Positions 14,847-25,403 of a DNA stretch of 58,569 nucleotides are shown here, piece by piece. Under the pieces are notes generated by a model. The model saw nothing but the letters and a program-made list of their open reading frames with translations. It did not search any database and was not told where the DNA came from. This DNA comes from Clostridia bacterium. Lineage in GTDB: Bacteria; Bacillota; Clostridia; Oscillospirales; CAG-272. The stretch lies in contig JAFWTH010000037.1 of assembly GCA_017518975.1 (NCBI GenBank), positions 1-58,569 on the forward strand. The letters run 5' to 3'. Position numbers and translations under genes: made by a program. Every line of letters starts with the position of its first letter. The stretch's first letter is position 1.

Positions 14847-15938
14847 ATGAAAAAAAGGTATCTCATACTCGAATCGGGCCGCGTGTTCGAGGGGGTCGGC
14901 TTCGGCGCGGATCCCTCGCCTGACGGTACGGTCGGCGAGCTCGTATTCACGACCGGAATGTGCGGTTATCTCGAATGCATAACCGACCCGTCGTATTACG
15001 GTCAGATAGTGACGCAGACGTTCCCGATGATCGGAAACTACGGCGTGATCTCCTCCGATTTTGAGGGGTGTCCCGCCCTTTTCGGATACGTCGTCAGGGA
15101 GTGGTGTCCCGCGCCGTCGAATTTTCGTTCCGAAGGCGATATCGACTCGTTCCTCAAAGATCGCGGGATCCCCGGGATCTGCGGAGTCGACACGAGGGAG
15201 ATCACGAAACTGATCCGCGACCGCGGCGTCATGAACGCCGTCATCACGGACGGCGAGCCCGATTTTTCGCTTTATTCGCAGGCGCTTTCGTCATATAAGG
15301 TGCGGGGAGCCGTTCCCGCCGTCACCTCGACGCGCCCGAATCTTTTCCCCGCCGACGGAGACGAGAAGTTCCGCGTCGTCCTGATCGACTACGGCGCGAA
15401 AGCGGGGATAACCGCCGCGCTTCGGGCGCGGGAATGCTCCGTTCTCTCCGTCCCCGCGAACACGGACGCCGAGAGTATCCTCGAGATGAAGCCCGACGGC
15501 ATCATGCTCTCGAACGGACCCGGCGACCCGACGGAAAGGCGCGACTGCATAGAGGAACTCAAAAAGATATTCGGCAGAGTCCCGATTTTCGGTATCTGCC
15601 TCGGCCACCAGCTCCTCGCGCTCTCGACCGGCGCGCTGACGGAAAAACTGAAGTTCGGCCACCGAGGCGCGAATCAGCCCGTCCGCGACGTTAAAAGCGG
15701 CAGAACGTATATCACCTCGCAGAACCACGGCTACGCCGTGAGGGTGGGGTCGCTCCGCCGCGGAACGATGAGTTTTACAAACGCGAACGACGGAACCTGC
15801 GAGGGGATCGACTATGAAGCCGATCTCGCCTTCTCCGTTCAGTTCCACCCCGAGGCGAGAAGCGGCCCGCACGACACGGAGTTTCTTTTCGACCGGTTCG
15901 TACGGATGATGGAGGTGAGACGAAATGCCAAAGGATGA
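14847..15938 (+). CDS. carA: Carbamoyl-phosphate synthase small subunit
   Basis: TDPSYYGQI, LSNGPGDP, GICLGHQ, SQNHGY, QFHPE. Confidence 0.97.
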   Translation: MKKRYLILESGRVFEGVGFGADPSPDGTVGELVFTTGMCGYLECITDPSYYGQIVTQTFPMIGNYGVISSDFEGCPALFGYVVREWCPAPSNFRSEGDIDSFLKDRGIPGICGVDTREITKLIRDRGVMNAVITDGEPDFSLYSQALSSYKVRGAVPAVTSTRPNLFPADGDEKFRVVLIDYGAKAGITAALRARECSVLSVPANTDAESILEMKPDGIMLSNGPGDPTERRDCIEELKKIFGRVPIFGICLGHQLLALSTGALTEKLKFGHRGANQPVRDVKSGRTYITSQNHGYAVRVGSLRRGTMSFTNANDGTCEGIDYEADLAFSVQFHPEARSGPHDTEFLFDRFVRMMEVRRNAKG

Positions 15939-18900
15939 ATCGATCCGCAAGGTGATGGTCATCGGCTCCGGTCCGATCGTCATCGGTCAGGCGGCGGAGT
16001 TCGACTACGCCGGAACGCAGGCGTGCCGCGTCCTCGAAGCGGAGGGGATCGAAACGGTCCTCGTCAACTCCAATCCCGCTACCGTTATGACGGACACCGA
16101 CCTCGCGGACGAGGTATACCTCGAACCGCTCACGGTCGAGACCGTGAAAAGGATAATCAAAAAAGAAAAGCCCGACTGTCTTCTCGCCGGACTCGGCGGA
16201 CAGACGGGGCTGACTCTCGCCGTAAAGCTCTTTGAGGACGGTTTCCTCGACGAGAACGGCGTGCGCCTCATCGGCTCGAACGTCGACGCGATAAAGAAAT
16301 CGGAAGACAGACAGCTGTTCAAGGATACGATGGCGGCGATCGGCGAGCCGACGATCCCGTCCGACACCGCGCACGACGTTGAGAAATCTCTGCGGATCGC
16401 CGAAGAGATCGGATATCCCGTCATCGTCCGCCCCGCGTACACGCTCGGCGGAGGCGGGGGCGGCGTCGCAAACTGCCCCGAAGAACTCGAAACGGTCGCA
16501 GCGGCGGGTATCGCCGCGTCGCCGATCGGTCAGATACTCGTCGAAAAATATATCTACGGCTGGAAAGAAATAGAATTTGAGACGATGCGCGACGGCAAGG
16601 GCAACGTGATCGCGGTCTGCTCGATGGAGAACGTCGACCCGGTCGGCGTCCACACCGGCGACTCCGTCGTCGTCGCACCCGCGCTGACGCTCTCTGACAG
16701 GGAGTATCAGACTCTGCGCAGCGCGTCTCTGAACATCATCTCGGCGCTCGGCATTGTCGGCGGGTGCAACTGTCAGTTCGCCCTCGACCCGGAGAGCTTC
16801 GACTACGCCGTCATCGAGGTCAACCCGCGCGTGTCCAGATCGTCCGCTCTAGCCAGCAAGGCGACCGGTTACCCGATAGCGAAGATCACCGCGAAGATCG
16901 CGCTCGGCTACACGCTCGACGAGATCAAAAACGACGTGACCGGAAAGACGTGCGCCTGCTTCGAGCCCGCGCTCGACTACGTAGTCGTCAAACTCCCGAA
17001 ATGGCCGTTCGACAAGCTCCACGGCTCCTCGCGCAAGCTCGGGACGCAGATGAAGGCGACAGGCGAGGTCATGGCTATCGCGACCTCCTTCCCCGCGGCG
17101 CTCATGAAAGCCGTCCGCGGCGCGGAGATCGGAACGGAAACGCTCGGAATACGCTATTTTGAAAACAAGACGGAAGACGAACTGCTCGAAGCGGTCGGCA
17201 GCTGCGACGACAGACGGCTCTTCGCCGTTTTCGCCGCGCTCAAATCCGGGGTCTCCGTCGAAGAGATCTCAAAGATCACGCGCATCGATCCGTTCTTCGT
17301 ATCCCAGATAAAACGGCTCGCCGATTATGAAAACAGAATATCGGGTCTCTCGCTCGACTCAGCCGATTATCTCGAGGGCAAAAAGCTCGGCTACACCGAC
17401 ACGGCGCTCGACGCCCTCTCGGGATATCCGCTCCCGTGCCACCGCGAGGCGGTCTTCAGGATCGTCGACACGTGCGGAGGCGAGTTCGACGCGGAGACTC
17501 CATACTACTATTCCTCGTACGACGAGGACTGCGAGGCGCGTCACGCCGCGCGCGCTCCGGGAAAGACCGTCGTCGTTCTCGGCTCGGGACCGATCCGCAT
17601 CGGTCAGGGGATCGAGTTCGATTACTCCTCCGTCCATTGCGCAACGACGCTCCGCCGTCTCGGCTACGAGGTCGTCATCATAAACAACAACCCCGAAACG
17701 GTCTCGACCGACTACGACACGGCGGACCGGCTCTACTTCGAGCCGCTGACGCCCGAGGACGTTATGAACGTCGTCGCCGTCGAGGAACCGGTCGGCGTCG
17801 TCGTGGCGTTCGGCGGCCAGACGGCAATAAAACTCACTAAATATCTCGACTCGCGCGGAGTCAGAATTCTCGGCACGTCAGCCGAGGGGATCGACACGGC
17901 GGAGGACCGCGAACGGTTCGACTCCCTGCTCGGTTCGCTCGGTATAAAGCGGCCGCAGGGAATGGGCGTCACCGGGACCGACGAGGCGATACGCGCCGCA
18001 AACGAACTCGGATATCCCGTTCTGCTCCGTCCCTCTTACGTCATCGGCGGGCAGAATATGAGGATAGTCTACTCTGACCGCGAGGTGAGGGAGTATATGG
18101 CTCCGATCCTCGAGGCGGGAGTCGACAGTCCCGTCCTCGTCGATAAATATATGAGCGGGATCGAGCTCGAGCTCGACGTCATCTCCGACGGAGAGGACGT
18201 TCTTATCCCCGGCATAATGGAGCACGTCGAACGGGCGGGAGTCCACTCAGGCGATTCGATCGCCGTGATCCCCGCTTATAAACTGAACGACAAAATGACG
18301 TCGGTCGTCATCAGTCAGGCGACGGCGATCTCGCTCGCGCTCGGAACGCGCGGACTCGTCAACATCCAGCTTCTTATATGGCGCGGCGAACCGTACGTGA
18401 TCGAGGTCAACCCTCGCGCATCGCGCACCGTCCCGTATATCAGCAAAGTCACGGGCGTTCCGATGATCGAGCTTGCGACGCGCGTCATGGTGGGCGAAAA
18501 ACTCGCAGACATGGGGTACGGAACCGGTCTTTACAGAACTCCGCCTTACTTTGCCGTCAAAGTCCCCGTCTTCTCGTTTGAAAAACTGCCCGACGCTTTC
18601 TCCGGTCTCGGACCGGAGATGAAGTCGACGGGCGAGGTGCTCGGGATCGGCAAAGACCTCAACGAAGCGCTCTTCAAGGGAATGCGCTCGGCGGGTCTGC
18701 TCCTTCCGTCCTCTCTGCGGCGCGAGGGAGTCGGTTTCTTCCTGCATGCGGACGAAAAAGACGTCCACGAGCTTATCGACCTTGCAAAAAAACTCGACGA
18801 TCTTCATTTCACGCTATACGCGTCGGAGAGCACCGCGGAGATGATATCGAAACTCGGCGTCAGCGTGAAAGTAGTCGATGAAACGTGCGCCGACGGAAAA

Positions 18901-19974
18901 CTCCTCTCTCTTCTTGACGGCGGGGAGATCAGCTACGTCGTCTATTCCGCGCTCGAGGATGCGGACGACGTCAGGAACTTCGATACGATCCACGCCCGCG
19001 CGATCGCGCTCTCCGTGCCGTGCCTCACGTCGCTCGACACCGCGGAAGCGCTCGCCGACATCATTCTGAGCCGGTACGCCGAGCACAACACGGAGCTCGT
19101 CGACATCAACACGATGAGAAAAGAAAGGATGAAGCTTTCGTTCTCGAAGATGGAGGCGACGGGCGCCGACTATATCGTCATCGACGACCGCGACGGGACG
19201 ATCACGTGTCCCGAATCGCTCTGCATAAAACTCTGCGACCGCCACTACGGCGTCGGCGGGTACGGCATCGCCCTGATAGAGAAGCCGGACGACCCGGAGG
19301 CGCACGTCAGAATGCGTCTGTTCAACAGGGACGGAAGCGAGGGCTTCATCGCAGGGACGGGCATCCGCTCCGTCGCAAAATACGTTTACGACCGCGGGAT
19401 CGCGAAGGAGGACGTCGTCCGGATCGAAACGGCGTCCGGGATCCGTCCCGTCAGCGTCTATACCTCCGACGGCAGAGTCACGATGGCGGGAGCCGGGATG
19501 GGGCGCGCGGAATTCGCGCCCGAGAAGATCCCGTGCACTCTCGACGGGGACGAGATCGTCGACCGGAAGATCAAAATCGCGGGCGGCGAATACCGGGTCA
19601 CCTGCCTTTCCGTCGGCAACCCGCACTGCGTGGTGTTCTGCGACAGGATCGACGACCTCGATCTTGAATCGATCGGACCGAAGTTTGAAAACGACCCGAT
19701 CTTCCCGGAGCGCGTCAACACCGAATTCGTCCGCGTCGTCGACCCGACGACGCTCAGGATGCGCGTCTGGGAGCGCGGCAACGGCGAGACGTTCGCCTGC
19801 GGTACGGGCGCCTGCGCGGCAGTCGCCGCGGCGGTGAAAAACGGCGTCTGCCCGAAGGGCGAGGACATCACCGTCAAAGTCATCGGAGGCGACCTGATCG
19901 TAAACTTCACGGATGAGGAGATCACCCTCTCCGGCGACACGAAGCTCGTCTTCGACGGAGTGACTGAATATTGA
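15925..19974 (+). CDS. carB: Carbamoyl-phosphate synthase large subunit fused to a C-terminal DapF-like domain (from ~19129)
   Basis: GSGPIVIGQAAEFDY, two ATP-grasp halves, MGS-like domain, then FSKM..G.DY, DRHYGVGG, SVGNPHCV, FPERVNTEF, VWERGNGETFACGTG, all in one frame. Confidence 0.95.
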   Translation: MPKDESIRKVMVIGSGPIVIGQAAEFDYAGTQACRVLEAEGIETVLVNSNPATVMTDTDLADEVYLEPLTVETVKRIIKKEKPDCLLAGLGGQTGLTLAVKLFEDGFLDENGVRLIGSNVDAIKKSEDRQLFKDTMAAIGEPTIPSDTAHDVEKSLRIAEEIGYPVIVRPAYTLGGGGGGVANCPEELETVAAAGIAASPIGQILVEKYIYGWKEIEFETMRDGKGNVIAVCSMENVDPVGVHTGDSVVVAPALTLSDREYQTLRSASLNIISALGIVGGCNCQFALDPESFDYAVIEVNPRVSRSSALASKATGYPIAKITAKIALGYTLDEIKNDVTGKTCACFEPALDYVVVKLPKWPFDKLHGSSRKLGTQMKATGEVMAIATSFPAALMKAVRGAEIGTETLGIRYFENKTEDELLEAVGSCDDRRLFAVFAALKSGVSVEEISKITRIDPFFVSQIKRLADYENRISGLSLDSADYLEGKKLGYTDTALDALSGYPLPCHREAVFRIVDTCGGEFDAETPYYYSSYDEDCEARHAARAPGKTVVVLGSGPIRIGQGIEFDYSSVHCATTLRRLGYEVVIINNNPETVSTDYDTADRLYFEPLTPEDVMNVVAVEEPVGVVVAFGGQTAIKLTKYLDSRGVRILGTSAEGIDTAEDRERFDSLLGSLGIKRPQGMGVTGTDEAIRAANELGYPVLLRPSYVIGGQNMRIVYSDREVREYMAPILEAGVDSPVLVDKYMSGIELELDVISDGEDVLIPGIMEHVERAGVHSGDSIAVIPAYKLNDKMTSVVISQATAISLALGTRGLVNIQLLIWRGEPYVIEVNPRASRTVPYISKVTGVPMIELATRVMVGEKLADMGYGTGLYRTPPYFAVKVPVFSFEKLPDAFSGLGPEMKSTGEVLGIGKDLNEALFKGMRSAGLLLPSSLRREGVGFFLHADEKDVHELIDLAKKLDDLHFTLYASESTAEMISKLGVSVKVVDETCADGKLLSLLDGGEISYVVYSALEDADDVRNFDTIHARAIALSVPCLTSLDTAEALADIILSRYAEHNTELVDINTMRKERMKLSFSKMEATGADYIVIDDRDGTITCPESLCIKLCDRHYGVGGYGIALIEKPDDPEAHVRMRLFNRDGSEGFIAGTGIRSVAKYVYDRGIAKEDVVRIETASGIRPVSVYTSDGRVTMAGAGMGRAEFAPEKIPCTLDGDEIVDRKIKIAGGEYRVTCLSVGNPHCVVFCDRIDDLDLESIGPKFENDPIFPERVNTEFVRVVDPTTLRMRVWERGNGETFACGTGACAAVAAAVKNGVCPKGEDITVKVIGGDLIVNFTDEEITLSGDTKLVFDGVTEY

Positions 19975-20188: not shown

Positions 20189-20986
20189 TTGAAACCGGAA
20201 AAATCGTATCGCGGGACCGTAAAACGCGCGGCGGGGATCGCCCTGACGGCGCTGGCGCTCGCCGCGGCGGGAGGGATCGTTTTGTTCGGACTGTTCGGAT
20301 GTTTCAAAAAAGCGCCTGAGTACAAAATTGACTTCTCTGGGGAGGAGTCGTGGTACGAGGGGGCAAAAAAAACGTACCGCGAGGGAGAGACGGTCACGCT
20401 GTACTATAATCTCATCGCGACGGACACAGACTACAAATTTCTGCTCGACGGAGAACCGATAAACTTCGGTTACGACGACGAACGCGGCTTCGTGATAACG
20501 TTCGCCATGCCCGCGCACGACGTAAAACTCGAGTGCCAAACGAAGAACTCGATGGAGTACGTTCCCGAAGTCGTCCCGGATATCCTTCTTTTCGATTACT
20601 ATTCCGCGACGACGGGAACGGACGGATACGACAGCAGCACGGAGATCACGCTCTCGACTTACTCGGGCGAATCCCACCGCCTGTCCGTTTTCGAAAAAGC
20701 GTCCCCCGACGCTGAGGAAACGAGGACCGATTATCTCGTCCCCGTCGAGTTGTCCGAAAAGTGTTACCGCGCCGTCTTTGAGTACGGTATGAACGAATGG
20801 GCGGGCCGGGACGACCTCGAGCCGATCGACGGCGCGCTCGTCGTTCTTAAATACAGAGAAGGCGACGATTACGTCCGGCTGTCGTCCGACGCCGCGCCGC
20901 CCGGCGGGATCGCCGAGATGGATTCGATCGGCGTCATGCTGAGAGAATACGCGTCCCCGGATTATCTCGAGGAGGGACGGGAATGA
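20189..20986 (+). CDS. Putative lipoprotein or membrane-anchored protein with a B-repeat-like (beta-grasp) domain
   Basis: Basic N-terminus, hydrophobic stretch and LFGC lipobox-like motif; GETVTL...FAMPAHDVKL resembles InlB-B-type repeats. Confidence 0.6.
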   Translation: MKPEKSYRGTVKRAAGIALTALALAAAGGIVLFGLFGCFKKAPEYKIDFSGEESWYEGAKKTYREGETVTLYYNLIATDTDYKFLLDGEPINFGYDDERGFVITFAMPAHDVKLECQTKNSMEYVPEVVPDILLFDYYSATTGTDGYDSSTEITLSTYSGESHRLSVFEKASPDAEETRTDYLVPVELSEKCYRAVFEYGMNEWAGRDDLEPIDGALVVLKYREGDDYVRLSSDAAPPGGIAEMDSIGVMLREYASPDYLEEGRE

Positions 20987-21480
20987 GAGAGAATAAAAAA
21001 GACGGCGGGAAATACCCGTGGATAAAAAGCGTTTTCAAAAAGAGAAAAAAAGACCCCGTACGCGGAGCGGAAGGGGTTTACGCGGGTCCGGACTATTTCA
21101 GGGACGGACCGGGCGAATCGAAAAAAATCTACGCGGGACCCGAGTTTTATAAAAAGAAAGAAGATCCGTCAGACAACTCCCGCCCGGTCGGGGACGTCTA
21201 CGCGGGGCCTGAATTCTTTGAGGGCGAACCGGACGGCCTTGTGAAGGCGATCTACTCCGCTCCGGTATTCCCGGAAAGACCTCAGGAGCCGCCCGTAATG
21301 TGCGTTTACGCGGGACCCGAGTATTTCTCGCAGCGTCGGGACGGCGCTCCGGTCGGCGTGGCGCAGCCGCAGGAAAAAGACTGCGACGGATCTCCGCGCT
21401 GCGCCTTCTGCGGGACACGGACGCCCGACGGCGCGAAATTCTGCCCGGAATGCGGGACCCGTCTGACGAACGATGAGTGA
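20983..21480 (+). CDS. Putative rSAM substrate: five YAGP-type repeats plus C-terminal zinc ribbon
   Basis: GVYAGPDYF, KIYAGPEFY, DVYAGPEFF, AIYSAPVFP, CVYAGPEYF; CAFCG-x9-FCPECG; ATGA overlap with the upstream gene, GGAGGG RBS. Confidence 0.8.
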   Translation: MRENKKDGGKYPWIKSVFKKRKKDPVRGAEGVYAGPDYFRDGPGESKKIYAGPEFYKKKEDPSDNSRPVGDVYAGPEFFEGEPDGLVKAIYSAPVFPERPQEPPVMCVYAGPEYFSQRRDGAPVGVAQPQEKDCDGSPRCAFCGTRTPDGAKFCPECGTRLTNDE

Positions 21481-22525
21481 CCGGATAAAGGGAAGCGAAT
21501 TCCCGTTCCGCCTTCGCTCCTGCGTGTGGGAGATAACCCTCGCGTGCTGTTTCCGGTGCGCATACTGCGGCTCGCGCGGAGGTGTCGCGAGAGAGAACGA
21601 ACTCTCGACGGAGGAGTGTCTTGACGTCGCCGAACAGCTCGCCGATTTGGGCTGCCGCCGCGTCTCCATGATCGGAGGCGAGGTCTTCATGCGTCCCGAC
21701 TGGGAGCAGATCGTCGGCGCGCTGACGTCCCGCGGCGTTATCACGTGCATCATAACGAACGGATTCCGCATGACGGAACCTGTGATCGCCGCCCTGAAGC
21801 GCGTCGGGATCGAATCGGTCGCCGTCTCGATCGACGGGGTCGCCGAGGTTCACGACAAATACCGCCTGGCGGGCAGTTACGAGAGCGCGATGGCTGCGCT
21901 TGACGTCCTCTCCGAGGCGGGGATACCCGTCTCCGTAATCAGCGCGCTCCGCGCGGACAACGCCCCGCGCCTGTCCGAGCTTTACGAAATACTCAAAACG
22001 AAGAATATCTTCGCGTGGCAGATCCAGGCGTGCTCTCCGATGGGCAACGCCGCGGGCGGATCCGTCGACGTCGGATTCGACGCCTCGGAGGTCATAAAAT
22101 TCGTCGCCGAAAACGCGGGACGCGACCCGTTTTATATCGGGATCGCGGACAATATCGGTTACCACACCCCCGAGGAAGCGAAGATCCGCGGGAGGCGCGG
22201 CCTCGTTTTCGAGGGCTGCTCCGCCGGGCTGACAACGCTCGGGATAGACAGCGTCGGAAACGTCCGCGGCTGCGAGTCGATGTACGACGAACGGTTCAAC
22301 GAGGGCAATCTCAGAGAGAGATCGCTCAGAGACATCTGGTGCGATCCCGACACGTTCGCTTACAACAGGAAATTCACTCCCGATATGCTCGCGGGCGGAT
22401 GCGCGGGATGCCCGAAGGGAGACGTATGCGCGGGCGGATGCCGCTCGTACAACTGGTTCACGACGGGAGGACTCTACGAAAACGCGCTTTGCCCCCGCCG
22501 CGGGATAAATGTGAACAACGAATGA
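21473..22525 (+). CDS. Radical SAM/SPASM peptide or protein maturase (splicease-like)
   Basis: VWEITLA-CxxxCxxC-GSRGG, ELSTEE, IGGE, SIDG, ADNIGY, GCSAG...GNVRGC, CxxCx5CxxxC SPASM cysteines; 8-nt overlap with the repeat gene. Confidence 0.9.
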   Translation: MSDRIKGSEFPFRLRSCVWEITLACCFRCAYCGSRGGVARENELSTEECLDVAEQLADLGCRRVSMIGGEVFMRPDWEQIVGALTSRGVITCIITNGFRMTEPVIAALKRVGIESVAVSIDGVAEVHDKYRLAGSYESAMAALDVLSEAGIPVSVISALRADNAPRLSELYEILKTKNIFAWQIQACSPMGNAAGGSVDVGFDASEVIKFVAENAGRDPFYIGIADNIGYHTPEEAKIRGRRGLVFEGCSAGLTTLGIDSVGNVRGCESMYDERFNEGNLRERSLRDIWCDPDTFAYNRKFTPDMLAGGCAGCPKGDVCAGGCRSYNWFTTGGLYENALCPRRGINVNNE

Positions 22526-23478: not shown

Positions 23479-23632
23479 ACGAATATAGGCGCGCGAACCA
23501 AAGAAAGAGGTACGTCCTCTTTTGTTTTGCCGCGCCGTAACGAGTAACTTTCGGATAGTGGAAACCGCGGGACGCAGCCACAACGGGAGCTGCTTTGCCG
23601 CGGTATTTTTGCGCCCGACCACGTCGGGCGCA
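23479..23632 (+). promoter_or_regulatory. Structured leader / attenuator
   Basis: Three hairpins: GGCGCG..AAAGAGG/CCTCTTT..CGCGCC; ACCGCGG..GCAGC/GCTGC..CCGCGGT plus T-run; GCGCCCGAC/GTCGGGCGC. Confidence 0.6.
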
Positions 23633-23666
23633 ACGAACAAAACGACAATTAAGGAGAATTACCGAT

Positions 23667-25403
23667 ATGCAAATCAAACTCATACCCGTGGACGACTCCA
23701 ACAGGGACGCCGTTCTGGCACTCTCCGTACGCGAGGATCAGCCCTTCGTCGCACCGAACGACGTCTCTCTGGATCAGGCGGACGAGGCGAACGCAGATAA
23801 CCCCGGCTCGGCGCGCCCGTTTGCGATCTGCGCCGACGGCAGACCGGTCGGCTTCTGTATGTTCGCGGTCGACCCGGAAGACGACGACGAAGACGACAGA
23901 TACTACCTCTGGCGTTTCATGATCGATAGGAACGAACAGGGAAAAGGGTACGGTCAGGCGGCTCTCGAACTGATCGTCCGCTATTTCAGAGAACTCGGGG
24001 CGGACCGGATCCTTCTGTCCACGGAACCGGAAAACGAGCTCGGTCTGCACGTGTATCACAAGGCCGGTTTCAGAGAGACCGGCTGCATCAGCGACGGCGA
24101 GGCCGTCCTGAGACTGTGGCTGACGAAGAAAACGAAAAAGGAGCGGGACGCGTTTTTGTGGTTCGGCGTCAACGTAAAGGATGATCTGCGGATCGCGGAT
24201 AAAAACGGATACGGCGTCAGCGCCGCGATCTCGAACGGAGAGGATCTGCAGACGTACTGCGCCGGAAGCGGCAGATACGGCAGCGACTTCCACGTGAACC
24301 CGGATATGCTCTTTCAGGCGGGATCCGTCAGCAAGCCCGCGTTCGCCCTGACTCTGCTCAGGTACGCCGACAAGGGGAAGATTAATCTCGACGCCGATAT
24401 ATCGGGCGTCGTGCCGGAATACGCGAAGATACCGGTAACGTTCTCCGCGCTGCTGTCCCACACGGCGGGATACAACCTCCACGGCTTCCCGGGATACAGA
24501 GCGGATCGCGAGCCGCTCTCGCTCGAGGACGTTCTGAACGGGAAGGGGATCACGCCGAAACTGCGCAGGATCCGCCCTTACGGGAAACAGTTTATGTATT
24601 CCGGCGGCGGGATCACCCTTGCTGAACTTGCTTTCACCCGCATGACGGGAGAGACGCTGCGCGACGCTTTCAGCAAAGAGGTCGCGGAGCCGCTGGAACT
24701 GACTCGAACGGGTTTTTTCCAGCCCCTTGACGAAGAACTCGTCGGGAACGCCGCGTTCGGCGGCAAACTCGGAGAAAAGGAAGATCCGGCTCACGGATAT
24801 CACTATTACCCCGAACATGCGGCGGCGGGCCTCTGGACCACGCCGACGGAGCTCTGCAGGATCGGGATCGCCCTCTCGCGCAGCTACCGCAAAGGAGGAT
24901 TCCTCAAAAAAGAGTCCGCAAGGCGTATGCTGACGCCGGTAATGGATAATTACGACCTCTGCATTTGCAATTATCGCGGCGACGTGGGGTATCACGACGG
25001 TTGGAACGAGGGCTTCCTGACCGAGTGGATGTTCTCCCTGCGCCGCGACCTGTGCGTGGCGAGCACGTTCAACAGGACCACGGACGAACTCGCCGGGAAA
25101 CATTTTGGGGTCGCGCTCGGGTTGTTCCAGAACGCGGAGGAGGAGATCGCCGAAGACGACGGCGTGAAAATCCCGAAAAAAATCTGCGGAAAATACGAAC
25201 AGAACGTCGCTGACTTCCGTCTTGAGGAGGTCTTTATGAAAGACGGAGACCTGTACGCCCGGATCCTTGGCGAGGACGGCCCCTTCACGAGCGCGCTTTA
25301 TCCCATCGAAAAGAACACGTTCGGCAGAAAAGGCGGTTTTGCAAAGATAACCTTCGGCGACGGCTTCCTCACCGTCAACGGGATCAAGTGTAAGAAGCTG
25401 TAA
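23667..25403 (+). CDS. Fusion of GNAT N-acetyltransferase and serine hydrolase (beta-lactamase class C-like fold)
   Basis: N-terminal WRFMID..EQGKGYG and YHKAGF; C-terminal FQAGSVSK (SxxK), LLSHTAG, YSG, AAAGLWTT, HDG; AAGGAG RBS. Confidence 0.85.
   Translation: MQIKLIPVDDSNRDAVLALSVREDQPFVAPNDVSLDQADEANADNPGSARPFAICADGRPVGFCMFAVDPEDDDEDDRYYLWRFMIDRNEQGKGYGQAALELIVRYFRELGADRILLSTEPENELGLHVYHKAGFRETGCISDGEAVLRLWLTKKTKKERDAFLWFGVNVKDDLRIADKNGYGVSAAISNGEDLQTYCAGSGRYGSDFHVNPDMLFQAGSVSKPAFALTLLRYADKGKINLDADISGVVPEYAKIPVTFSALLSHTAGYNLHGFPGYRADREPLSLEDVLNGKGITPKLRRIRPYGKQFMYSGGGITLAELAFTRMTGETLRDAFSKEVAEPLELTRTGFFQPLDEELVGNAAFGGKLGEKEDPAHGYHYYPEHAAAGLWTTPTELCRIGIALSRSYRKGGFLKKESARRMLTPVMDNYDLCICNYRGDVGYHDGWNEGFLTEWMFSLRRDLCVASTFNRTTDELAGKHFGVALGLFQNAEEEIAEDDGVKIPKKICGKYEQNVADFRLEEVFMKDGDLYARILGEDGPFTSALYPIEKNTFGRKGGFAKITFGDGFLTVNGIKCKKL

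Follow-up and report, generated by a model that had tools for sequence, protein, structure and literature searches.

A short open reading frame (ORF) that repeats a tyrosine-centred motif and runs into the gene of a radical S-adenosylmethionine (radical SAM) enzyme raises the question of whether the first gene encodes the substrate of the second and, if so, what is done to it. The two genes lie in a 58,569-nucleotide (nt) stretch of DNA from a Clostridia bacterium (Oscillospirales; CAG-272; contig JAFWTH010000037.1 of assembly GCA_017518975.1), the whole of which we call the window. The ORF encodes a protein of 165 amino acids (aa), hereafter the repeat protein or precursor. An earlier interpretation made from the letters alone, the sequence-only reading, had taken it to be a precursor-like substrate with several modification sites. 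We find that the gene is real, that its motif is conserved, that it is linked to the enzyme gene, and that the enzyme is kin to named peptide maturases. The reading that we favour, namely a two-gene cassette of substrate and maturase with splicease-like chemistry, has in our judgment an even chance of being right as a whole; its parts differ in strength.

The repeat protein and its family

The features on which the sequence-only reading was built, i.e., five motif copies around Tyr33, Tyr50, Tyr73, Tyr91 and Tyr109, a Lys-rich N-terminus (eight Lys and three Arg within residues 1-30) and a CxxC-x10-CxxC ribbon, are all present in the 165-aa ORF. Translation of the window (58.6 kb) in six frames gives 117,134 residues, among which [VI]Y[AS][GA]P is matched five times, each time inside this ORF (20983-21480). 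Together with the other confirmed features, this places the repeat observation far beyond chance. The ribbon (C140-x2-C143-x10-C154-x2-C157) matches PF13240 (Zn_Ribbon_1; E 1.3e-7, 31.7 bits, above the Pfam cut-off of 25), while the repeat part is covered by no NCBIfam or Pfam model. Searches of the same two collections gave no match to a leader family (Nif11, NHLP or double-Gly) in the repeat protein, the 165 residues hold no YG dipeptide, and no signal peptide was seen in the YAGP proteins. AlphaFold2, run on an alignment of 24 family members (A1), gave a mean predicted local distance difference test (pLDDT) score of 63.6, with values above 90 in the ribbon only and coil in the remainder; the protein is thus predicted to be disordered outside its zinc ribbon.

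The repeats do not stem from slippage of the DNA. Tandem Repeats Finder reported zero tandem repeats for the gene, and at the DNA level the motif copies share only 70-95% identity over 19-40 nt, with irregular spacing (51, 69, 54 and 54 nt). As the sequence-only reading had pointed out in arguing for selection on the peptide, synonymous codons vary from copy to copy, with Gly encoded by GGT/GGA/GGG/GGA and Pro by CCG/CCC/CCT/CCG/CCC. Slippage as the origin of the repeats was ruled out on these grounds.

The motif is conserved far beyond the window. A search of 5.8 billion proteins (E<=1e-3, lengths 90-289 aa) returned 166 homologs, in which the motif is kept at identities down to 27%; their source names, where given, are Clostridia, Lachnospiraceae or Eubacteriales metagenome-assembled genomes (MAGs). 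In 181 distinct family proteins, the pattern Y[AGS][AGS]P, which fixes Pro at +3 relative to Tyr, occurs 804 times (YAGP 726, YAAP 47, YGGP 25, others 6), with 1 to 10 motifs per protein and four as the commonest number. Across these copies, Val occupies -1 in 92%, Ala +1 in 96%, Gly +2 in 94% and Glu or Asp +4 in 68%, and positions +5/+6 are aromatic. The 25 YGGP copies are literal XYG sites within the family. A CxxC...CxxC arrangement is found in 160 of the 181 proteins.

Alignment A1 contains four conserved blocks: an N-terminal KKYPWIKSIF, an EDVYAGPEFFE copy, the last MMCVYAGPEYF copy and the ribbon, joined by variable spacers rich in Pro and acidic residues. Within the N-terminal block, A1 shows no variation at P12 and at least 90% conservation at Y11 and K15; 108 of the 120 homologs listed have a [YF]P element within the first 30 aa, with the consensus KKYPW[IN]KSIF at residues of about 6-15. 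The contrast with the flanking genes is instructive. In the nearest relatives of the locus (L035 and L038), identity to the window stands at 92% and 88% for the enzyme and at 95% and 93% for the downstream aldolase, whereas for the precursor it is only 55-57%, counted over aligned columns, and spacer insertions and deletions are many. Because the precursor diverges far faster than the enzyme while its N-terminal element, motifs and ribbon are kept, selection acts on the motif and other short linear elements and not on the spacers, which is the pattern expected for enzyme recognition and modification sites.

The suggestion of the sequence-only reading that the ribbon serves as a follower or recognition module has found little support. 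The number of ribbons per protein varies from 0 to 3, and so does their position (internal in L071 and L084, N-terminal in L122, a locus of the sister clade described below). Furthermore, precursors without a ribbon directly adjoin the enzyme in four loci (L094, L110, L120 and L121). From its conservation, KKYPW[IN]KSIF, which that reading had not mentioned, is the better candidate for a recognition element. Fusion of the repeat protein to other domains was considered and rejected: in six longer homologs (E<=1e-6, 333-378 aa), ribbons are the sole Pfam domains.

Linkage of the precursor and enzyme genes

The enzyme gene begins at 21473, within the last 8 nt of the precursor gene, and overlaps the precursor stop codon, an arrangement that was likewise absent from the sequence-only reading. 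The motif patterns, run against 185,579 species genomes, picked out 70 loci, nearly all from rumen or gut MAGs (sheep, goat, yak, buffalo, cattle and reindeer), with one isolate, Ruminococcaceae bacterium P7. By tblastn with the window proteins, 64 of the 70 loci have a homolog of the enzyme next to the precursor. Sixty-two of these 64 homologs give alignments longer than 300 aa, with 58-92% identity to the window enzyme; the other two are aligned over 235 aa (L051) or cut by a contig end (L067). Where the distance from the precursor stop to the extrapolated enzyme start could be given (59 loci), it is between -40 and +60 nt in 57.

The six loci without the enzyme fall into two groups. In three (L047, L082 and L085), the sequence stops no more than about 540 nt past the precursor, and three (L091-L093) have kilobases of flank from which the enzyme is absent. 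The genomes of L085 and L091-L093 all hold the enzyme at another site, 60-70% identical and each with its own adjacent precursor, and no copy was found elsewhere in the genome of L047. Both results go the way that the sequence-only reading had anticipated: the motif is kept in homologs, and the enzyme co-occurs with it rather than being missing from most of the genomes concerned. Motif conservation and linkage together support its proposal of a multi-site substrate for the adjacent radical SAM enzyme.

The linkage is confined to these two genes. Clustering of every ORF of 90 aa or more from the 70 loci left the precursor (in 65 loci) and the enzyme (in 63) as the only recurrent real gene families; the next clusters consist of shadow ORFs within the enzyme gene. 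Proteases, transporters and RRE genes do not recur, nor does any gene resembling mftB, mftD, mftE or mftF. In four loci (L094 and L109-L111), precursors flank the enzyme on both sides, the upstream one short and ribbon-less and the downstream one carrying VYGGP or VYAGP copies and a ribbon.

Clostridia of the ruminant gut carry the cassette widely, and in the taxonomic samples that we searched it is sparse. A profile search with A1 found it at full length in 3 of 301 genomes of the order (G000, G202 and G284); the raw tally of 183 of 301 was discarded as noise, the rest having matched the ribbon only (positions about 100-183). It was found in 5 of 399 scored genomes of the class sample (>=57% identity) and in 1 of 401 of the phylum sample.

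The enzyme, its relatives and the proposed chemistry at the tyrosine

The 350-aa enzyme matches PF04055 (E 1.1e-25) and PF13186 (E 3e-7), and its cluster-binding Cys are invariant in 57 sequences (Table 1). Its best NCBIfam family is TIGR04103, "nif11-class peptide radical SAM maturase 3" (E 4.5e-72, 243 bits), followed by TIGR03913, a GDL motif peptide-associated maturase (218.8 bits, below the cut-off of 591.75), and MftC (TIGR03962; 129.8 bits, E 1.3e-37, below the cut-off of 265). We take TIGR04103 to be the PlpX model; the source consulted only places PlpX in subclass IPR026482. No GDL motif occurs in the 165-aa protein. MftC, NirJ and StsB, and also WgkB, SkfB and DynA, are weaker matches well behind the top two. 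The enzyme lacks an N-terminal RRE domain, because its CX3CX2C motif already starts at residue 25; its alignments to StsB and SkfB begin after the first 93-100 residues of those proteins.

To place the enzyme among its relatives, we collected 417 (E<=1e-30) from 1.84 billion representatives and scanned the nearest 108. TIGR04103 or TIGR03913 was the best family for 95 of these (E<=1e-60), and 13 had no family at this threshold; none of the 108 reaches a family cut-off. In FastTree trees, for which 57 family enzymes were thinned to 20 in one tree and 15 in the other, the family enzymes together with P0121 and P0122 form a single clade (Shimodaira-Hasegawa-like support 94-97), which is joined by a sister group of P0126, P0127 and L112 (support 96) and is well separated from the XYG-linked relatives described below.

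The sister group, which is also represented in human-gut contigs, extends the cassette beyond the YAGP family. In L112, the enzyme is 42% identical and is followed by a 197-aa protein ending ...RELYGPPDFDDDF...TIYGPPDFDDDF. A metagenome scan with a sister-clade alignment (A3) gave 41 loci, of which we inspected 22; in 17 of these, a small same-strand neighbour carries a related motif (Table 1). The enzymes of the sister-clade cassettes (L112, L123-L133 and L136-L150) are 38-54% identical to that of L112 and, like the window enzyme, of the short form (about 350-360 aa). Loci L136-L149 are near-identical, come from gut metagenome contigs and have an enzyme 43% identical; their upstream ORF ends ...KQSGYPQEDP...KEPPIMAVYAAPVIKEEK and thus has one VYAAP site and no ribbon.

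Several properties tie the sister clade to the window cassette. Its motif neighbours, which also include LYGPPDF, share with the family the frame Y-x-[GP]-P-[DEQ]-[FY], preceded in both clades by a [KQN]-Y-P element, and zinc ribbons occur in L128, L131, L150 and L122. Relative to the wider radiation, the window clade has a derived frame, V-Y-x-G-P-[DEQ]-[YF]-[YF], with x being Ala there and Phe, Tyr or Gly in the sister clade. Most sister-clade neighbours differ from the window protein in holding one or two motifs, and some (L123, L125, L130 and L132) in starting with a lipoprotein-like signal. We also note that the motif proteins of L123, L125, L126, L129, L130 and L132 are tiny (63-163 aa), have signal- or lipoprotein-like starts and repeat a unit [QN]YP-x8-10-VY[FY]GP. 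These properties suggest that the modification target may occur here in forms that are exported or anchored to the surface.

More distant relatives (about 34-41% identical, ~510 aa) adjoin leader-bearing precursors with XYG cores. In other Bacillota, the precursors of L105-L107 have an NHLP-like leader ending ...DVAGG and one AYG, and those of L113-L115 have a double-Gly leader and three [FL]YGI[KE]P sites. The enzymes of L116 and L117 adjoin an ORF that resembles a C39-peptidase/ABC exporter, as judged from its N-terminal sequence alone. The wider enzyme radiation is thus centred on Tyr-Gly.

The closest known systems are the spliceotides. Spliceases are described as excising tyramine at XYG (PMC11414181, PMC9811515), and binary systems as dispensing with the Y protein, its place being taken by a leader helix that activates the enzyme (PMC11414181). 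Splicease systems accept multiple sites (PMC5995677), and spliceotides inhibit proteases (PMC11626197). The window cassette resembles spliceotides, i.e., Pleurocapsa PlpA/PlpX(Y) and the binary RhaA/RhaX and RcsA/RcsX (PMC11414181, PMC11626197 and PMC9811515), in that a radical SAM enzyme with a full SPASM region adjoins its putative substrate, in that the conserved site is a Tyr followed by small residues, and in that several sites per substrate are possible; it resembles the binary systems in having no Y/RRE protein. It differs from spliceotides in its motif (V-Y-A-G-P, no YG), in an enzyme that reaches 243 bits where the cut-off is 725 and falls about 60 aa short of the model in length, in a substrate that is a 165-aa disordered zinc-ribbon protein without a Nif11, NHLP or double-Gly leader, in the lack of a linked peptidase or exporter at window-type loci, and in its hosts, which are rumen and gut Clostridia rather than Cyanobacteria or Proteobacteria.

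In the mechanism that we favour, the 165-aa protein and the overlapping radical SAM/SPASM gene would constitute a self-contained substrate/maturase cassette. The disordered chain would present up to five V-Y-A-G-P-[DE]-[YF]-[YF] sites, and the enzyme, without an RRE domain or partner protein, would dock on KKYPW[IN]KSIF and/or on each motif, with KKYPW[IN]KSIF playing, by analogy, the part of the leader helix of binary systems. A 5'-deoxyadenosyl radical would then act on the invariant Val-Tyr of every motif, and a Val-derived ketoamide would be formed at each V-Y-A-G-P, with Ala and not Gly after Tyr. Since no export or cleavage genes recur and no signal sequence is present, the product would probably stay in the cytoplasm as a modified protein and not be cut and secreted as a peptide. 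That the adjacent enzyme acts on the repeat protein is very probable, and we infer that the Tyr of the motif is the modification site. Tyramine-type splicing, proposed by analogy because the nearest named relatives are spliceases, is the most likely single reaction, and taken alone we would put it a little under an even chance. The ketoamide chemistry raised by the sequence-only reading would fit the nearest named family and the XYG relatives, but it is opposed by a motif that is V-Y-A-G-P and not X-Y-G and by a score far below the cut-off. A role of the repeat protein as a multivalent protease inhibitor, also raised there, would be pure inference; with 1-10 sites per chain, such a role, or another as an electrophilic protein, is testable.

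A number of observations weigh against this picture. The residue after Tyr may be A, F, Y or G, and E, M or N in degenerate copies; because of this variation and the lack of YG in the window protein, the defining feature of XYG substrates is missing. The enzyme, at 242.9 bits, does not reach the TIGR04103 cut-off of 725, covers profile positions 3-348 of 412 and is ~60 residues shorter than the model. A sequence search of the Protein Data Bank gave SkfB (E 6.7e-21) and PqqE as the nearest entries and no solved relative. The near-invariant Val-Tyr pair resembles that of the mycofactocin substrate, and MftC is the third-best family. Finally, transcription of the locus is only weakly hinted at. 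Four RNA-labelled runs, examined as assembled contigs, cover small parts of the locus and leave most of it bare, which is uninformative: run X17 has an exact 151-nt contig bridging the upstream gene and the precursor (20926-21076) and a second 151-nt contig, with two differences, just upstream (20796-20946), and run X20 an exact 151-nt contig in the enzyme gene (21715-21865), and DNA carry-over is possible for all three. Co-folding of the enzyme (alignment A2) with the precursor (A1) gave ipSAE values of 0.01 and 0.00, which count neither way on binding.

The alternative that survives best keeps the same enzyme-substrate pair and changes the chemistry at or near the Tyr: a C-C or C-O cross-link of Tyr to the Pro at +3 or the aromatic residue at +5/+6, a mycofactocin-like reaction of Val-Tyr, or epimerisation. 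We regard it as a serious contender that still falls short of an even chance, and nearly as likely as splicing because XYG is absent, the post-Tyr residue varies and the enzyme lies far below both named cut-offs. It would account for the fact that Val at -1 and Gly at +2 are kept while the residue after Tyr changes, with Pro at +3 in nearly all sister-clade copies read, and for the distance of the clade from the XYG-linked relatives. SPASM enzymes are known for many cross-links, and StsB, WgkB, SkfB and DynA are among the weaker matches here. However, wherever the neighbour of a relative could be read, it has Tyr-Gly or Tyr-x-Gly sites, and splicing is the sole named chemistry in the neighbourhood of the enzyme. 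A cyclophane cross-link over three residues needs a C-beta at +2, which is Gly in this motif. As for a mycofactocin-like reaction, the likeness lies in a radical SAM/SPASM enzyme, MftC, that acts on a Val-Tyr pair; MftA ends in Gly-Val-Tyr and MftC needs a free C-terminus, whereas the Val-Tyr pairs of the window protein are internal and repeated, and the window enzyme scores 130 bits against a cut-off of 265.

A broader version of this alternative is a Tyr reaction not yet described, either Gly-independent splicing or a new cross-link, that would act on whole, disordered, cytoplasmic zinc-ribbon proteins at up to 10 sites and on the lipoprotein-like targets of the sister clade, making the cassette a means of protein modification in rumen and gut Clostridia and not a secreted RiPP (a peptide that is synthesized on ribosomes and modified after translation). 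We consider this a tentative proposal, with roughly one chance in three.

It is improbable that the repeat protein is a partner, scaffold or regulator of an enzyme that acts on another molecule. Such a role would suit a protein that is long for a RiPP precursor, ends in a zinc ribbon and has no linked cleavage or export genes. Yet the tight, same-strand, overlapping linkage holds across enzymes of 58-92% identity, the conserved parts of the protein are only short linear motifs in a disordered chain, 1 to 10 copies per protein are typical of multi-site substrates, and the relatives of the enzyme adjoin classical precursor peptides. The notion that a spurious ORF has produced the repeats by chance or through low complexity, in a window of 56% G+C that is full of long shadow ORFs, or the result of slippage, can be set aside given the 166 homologs with the motif down to 27% identity, the confinement of all five pattern matches to one ORF, and synonymous codon changes without a tandem DNA repeat.

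Returning to the substrate-maturase cassette, searches of the literature for the motif strings and for rumen SPASM precursor peptides gave no relevant match. According to a review (PMC10849128), Scott et al. 2022 searched 189 genera for YG-rich neighbours of PlpX-like enzymes; that survey, which sorts spliceases into types, may or may not list the clade. A filter on YG frequency would tend to miss the YAGP clade. From its sequences, the V-Y-x-G-P cassette would represent a variant of spliceotide-like systems not previously found in the literature searched. Should V-Y-A prove to be a splice site of the enzyme, the X-Y-G requirement of spliceases would be widened, and a second short, leader-free tag for placing ketoamides in engineered proteins would be available; if the chemistry differs, the cassette would embody a new radical SAM reaction with hundreds of natural substrates.

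Feature coordinates and other genes of the window

Table 1. Features of the cassette in window coordinates, followed by the motif-bearing neighbours of sister-clade enzymes
Feature	Position	Strand	Remarks
Repeat-protein gene, putative substrate ("A protein")	20983..21480	+	ORF, ATG start, 165 aa, stop codon included
N-terminal element KYPWIKSVF, residues 10-18	21010..21036	+	conservation in A1 and homologs; putative recognition or activating role
Repeat 1, VYAGPDYF (Tyr33)	21076..21099	+	
Repeat 2, IYAGPEFY (Tyr50)	21127..21150	+	LYEGP at the same place in nearest relatives
Repeat 3, VYAGPEFF (Tyr73)	21196..21219	+	"EDVYAGPEFFE" copy; V72-E77 invariant in A1
Repeat 4, IYSAPVFP, degenerate (Tyr91)	21250..21273	+	LYAAP at the same place in relatives
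Repeat 5, (VMC)VYAGPEYF (Tyr109)	21304..21327	+	"MMCVYAGPEYF" copy; Y109-P112 invariant in A1
C-terminal zinc ribbon, C140/C143/C154/C157	21400..21465	+	PF13240, residues 140-161; pLDDT >90
Radical SAM/SPASM enzyme gene, 350 aa	21473..22525	+	PF04055, PF13186
CX3CX2C cluster motif (C25, C29, C32)	21545..21568	+	Cys invariant in 57 sequences
SPASM region, Cys C249, C267, C310, C313, C319, C323, C340	22217..22492	+	all seven invariant in 57 sequences
Neighbour in L123, L125			...QYPSTAEPEGDVYFGPQYFEGDENDE after lipoprotein-like signal
Neighbour in L126			VYYGPQYY and LYAGPDYF
Neighbour in L128, L131			VYFGPQ and ribbon
Neighbour in L129			NYPDEIE...VYYGPD, twice
Neighbour in L133			VYFGPEFF
Neighbour in L150			VYGGPD[YF]F, twice, and three ribbons
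Neighbour in L136-L149, gut contigs			...GYPQEDP...IMAVYAAPV
Neighbours in L122, L127, L130, L132			further motif variants

A gene for a 265-aa protein (20189-20986, + strand) overlaps the precursor start codon by 4 nt and matches no Pfam or NCBIfam family. Its product has an N-terminal hydrophobic stretch ending ...LFGC, which gives it a lipoprotein-like look. It is common only to the nearest relatives (L035, L038 and L098), and in L081 it lies downstream on the opposite strand; because it is confined to these, we place it outside the conserved cassette, and a cassette role was rejected on the same grounds for the downstream aldolase.

Two further genes of the window deserve mention. A 1349-aa ORF (15925-19974, + strand) encodes a complete carbamoyl-phosphate synthase large chain joined at its C-terminus to a diaminopimelate epimerase domain (PF01678, E 8.4e-53, residues about 1080-1340), an unusual CarB-DapF fusion with carA directly upstream (14847-15938). 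In addition, a 602-aa ORF (23595-25403, + strand) combines an N-terminal GNAT acetyltransferase with a beta-lactamase-fold domain (PF00144).

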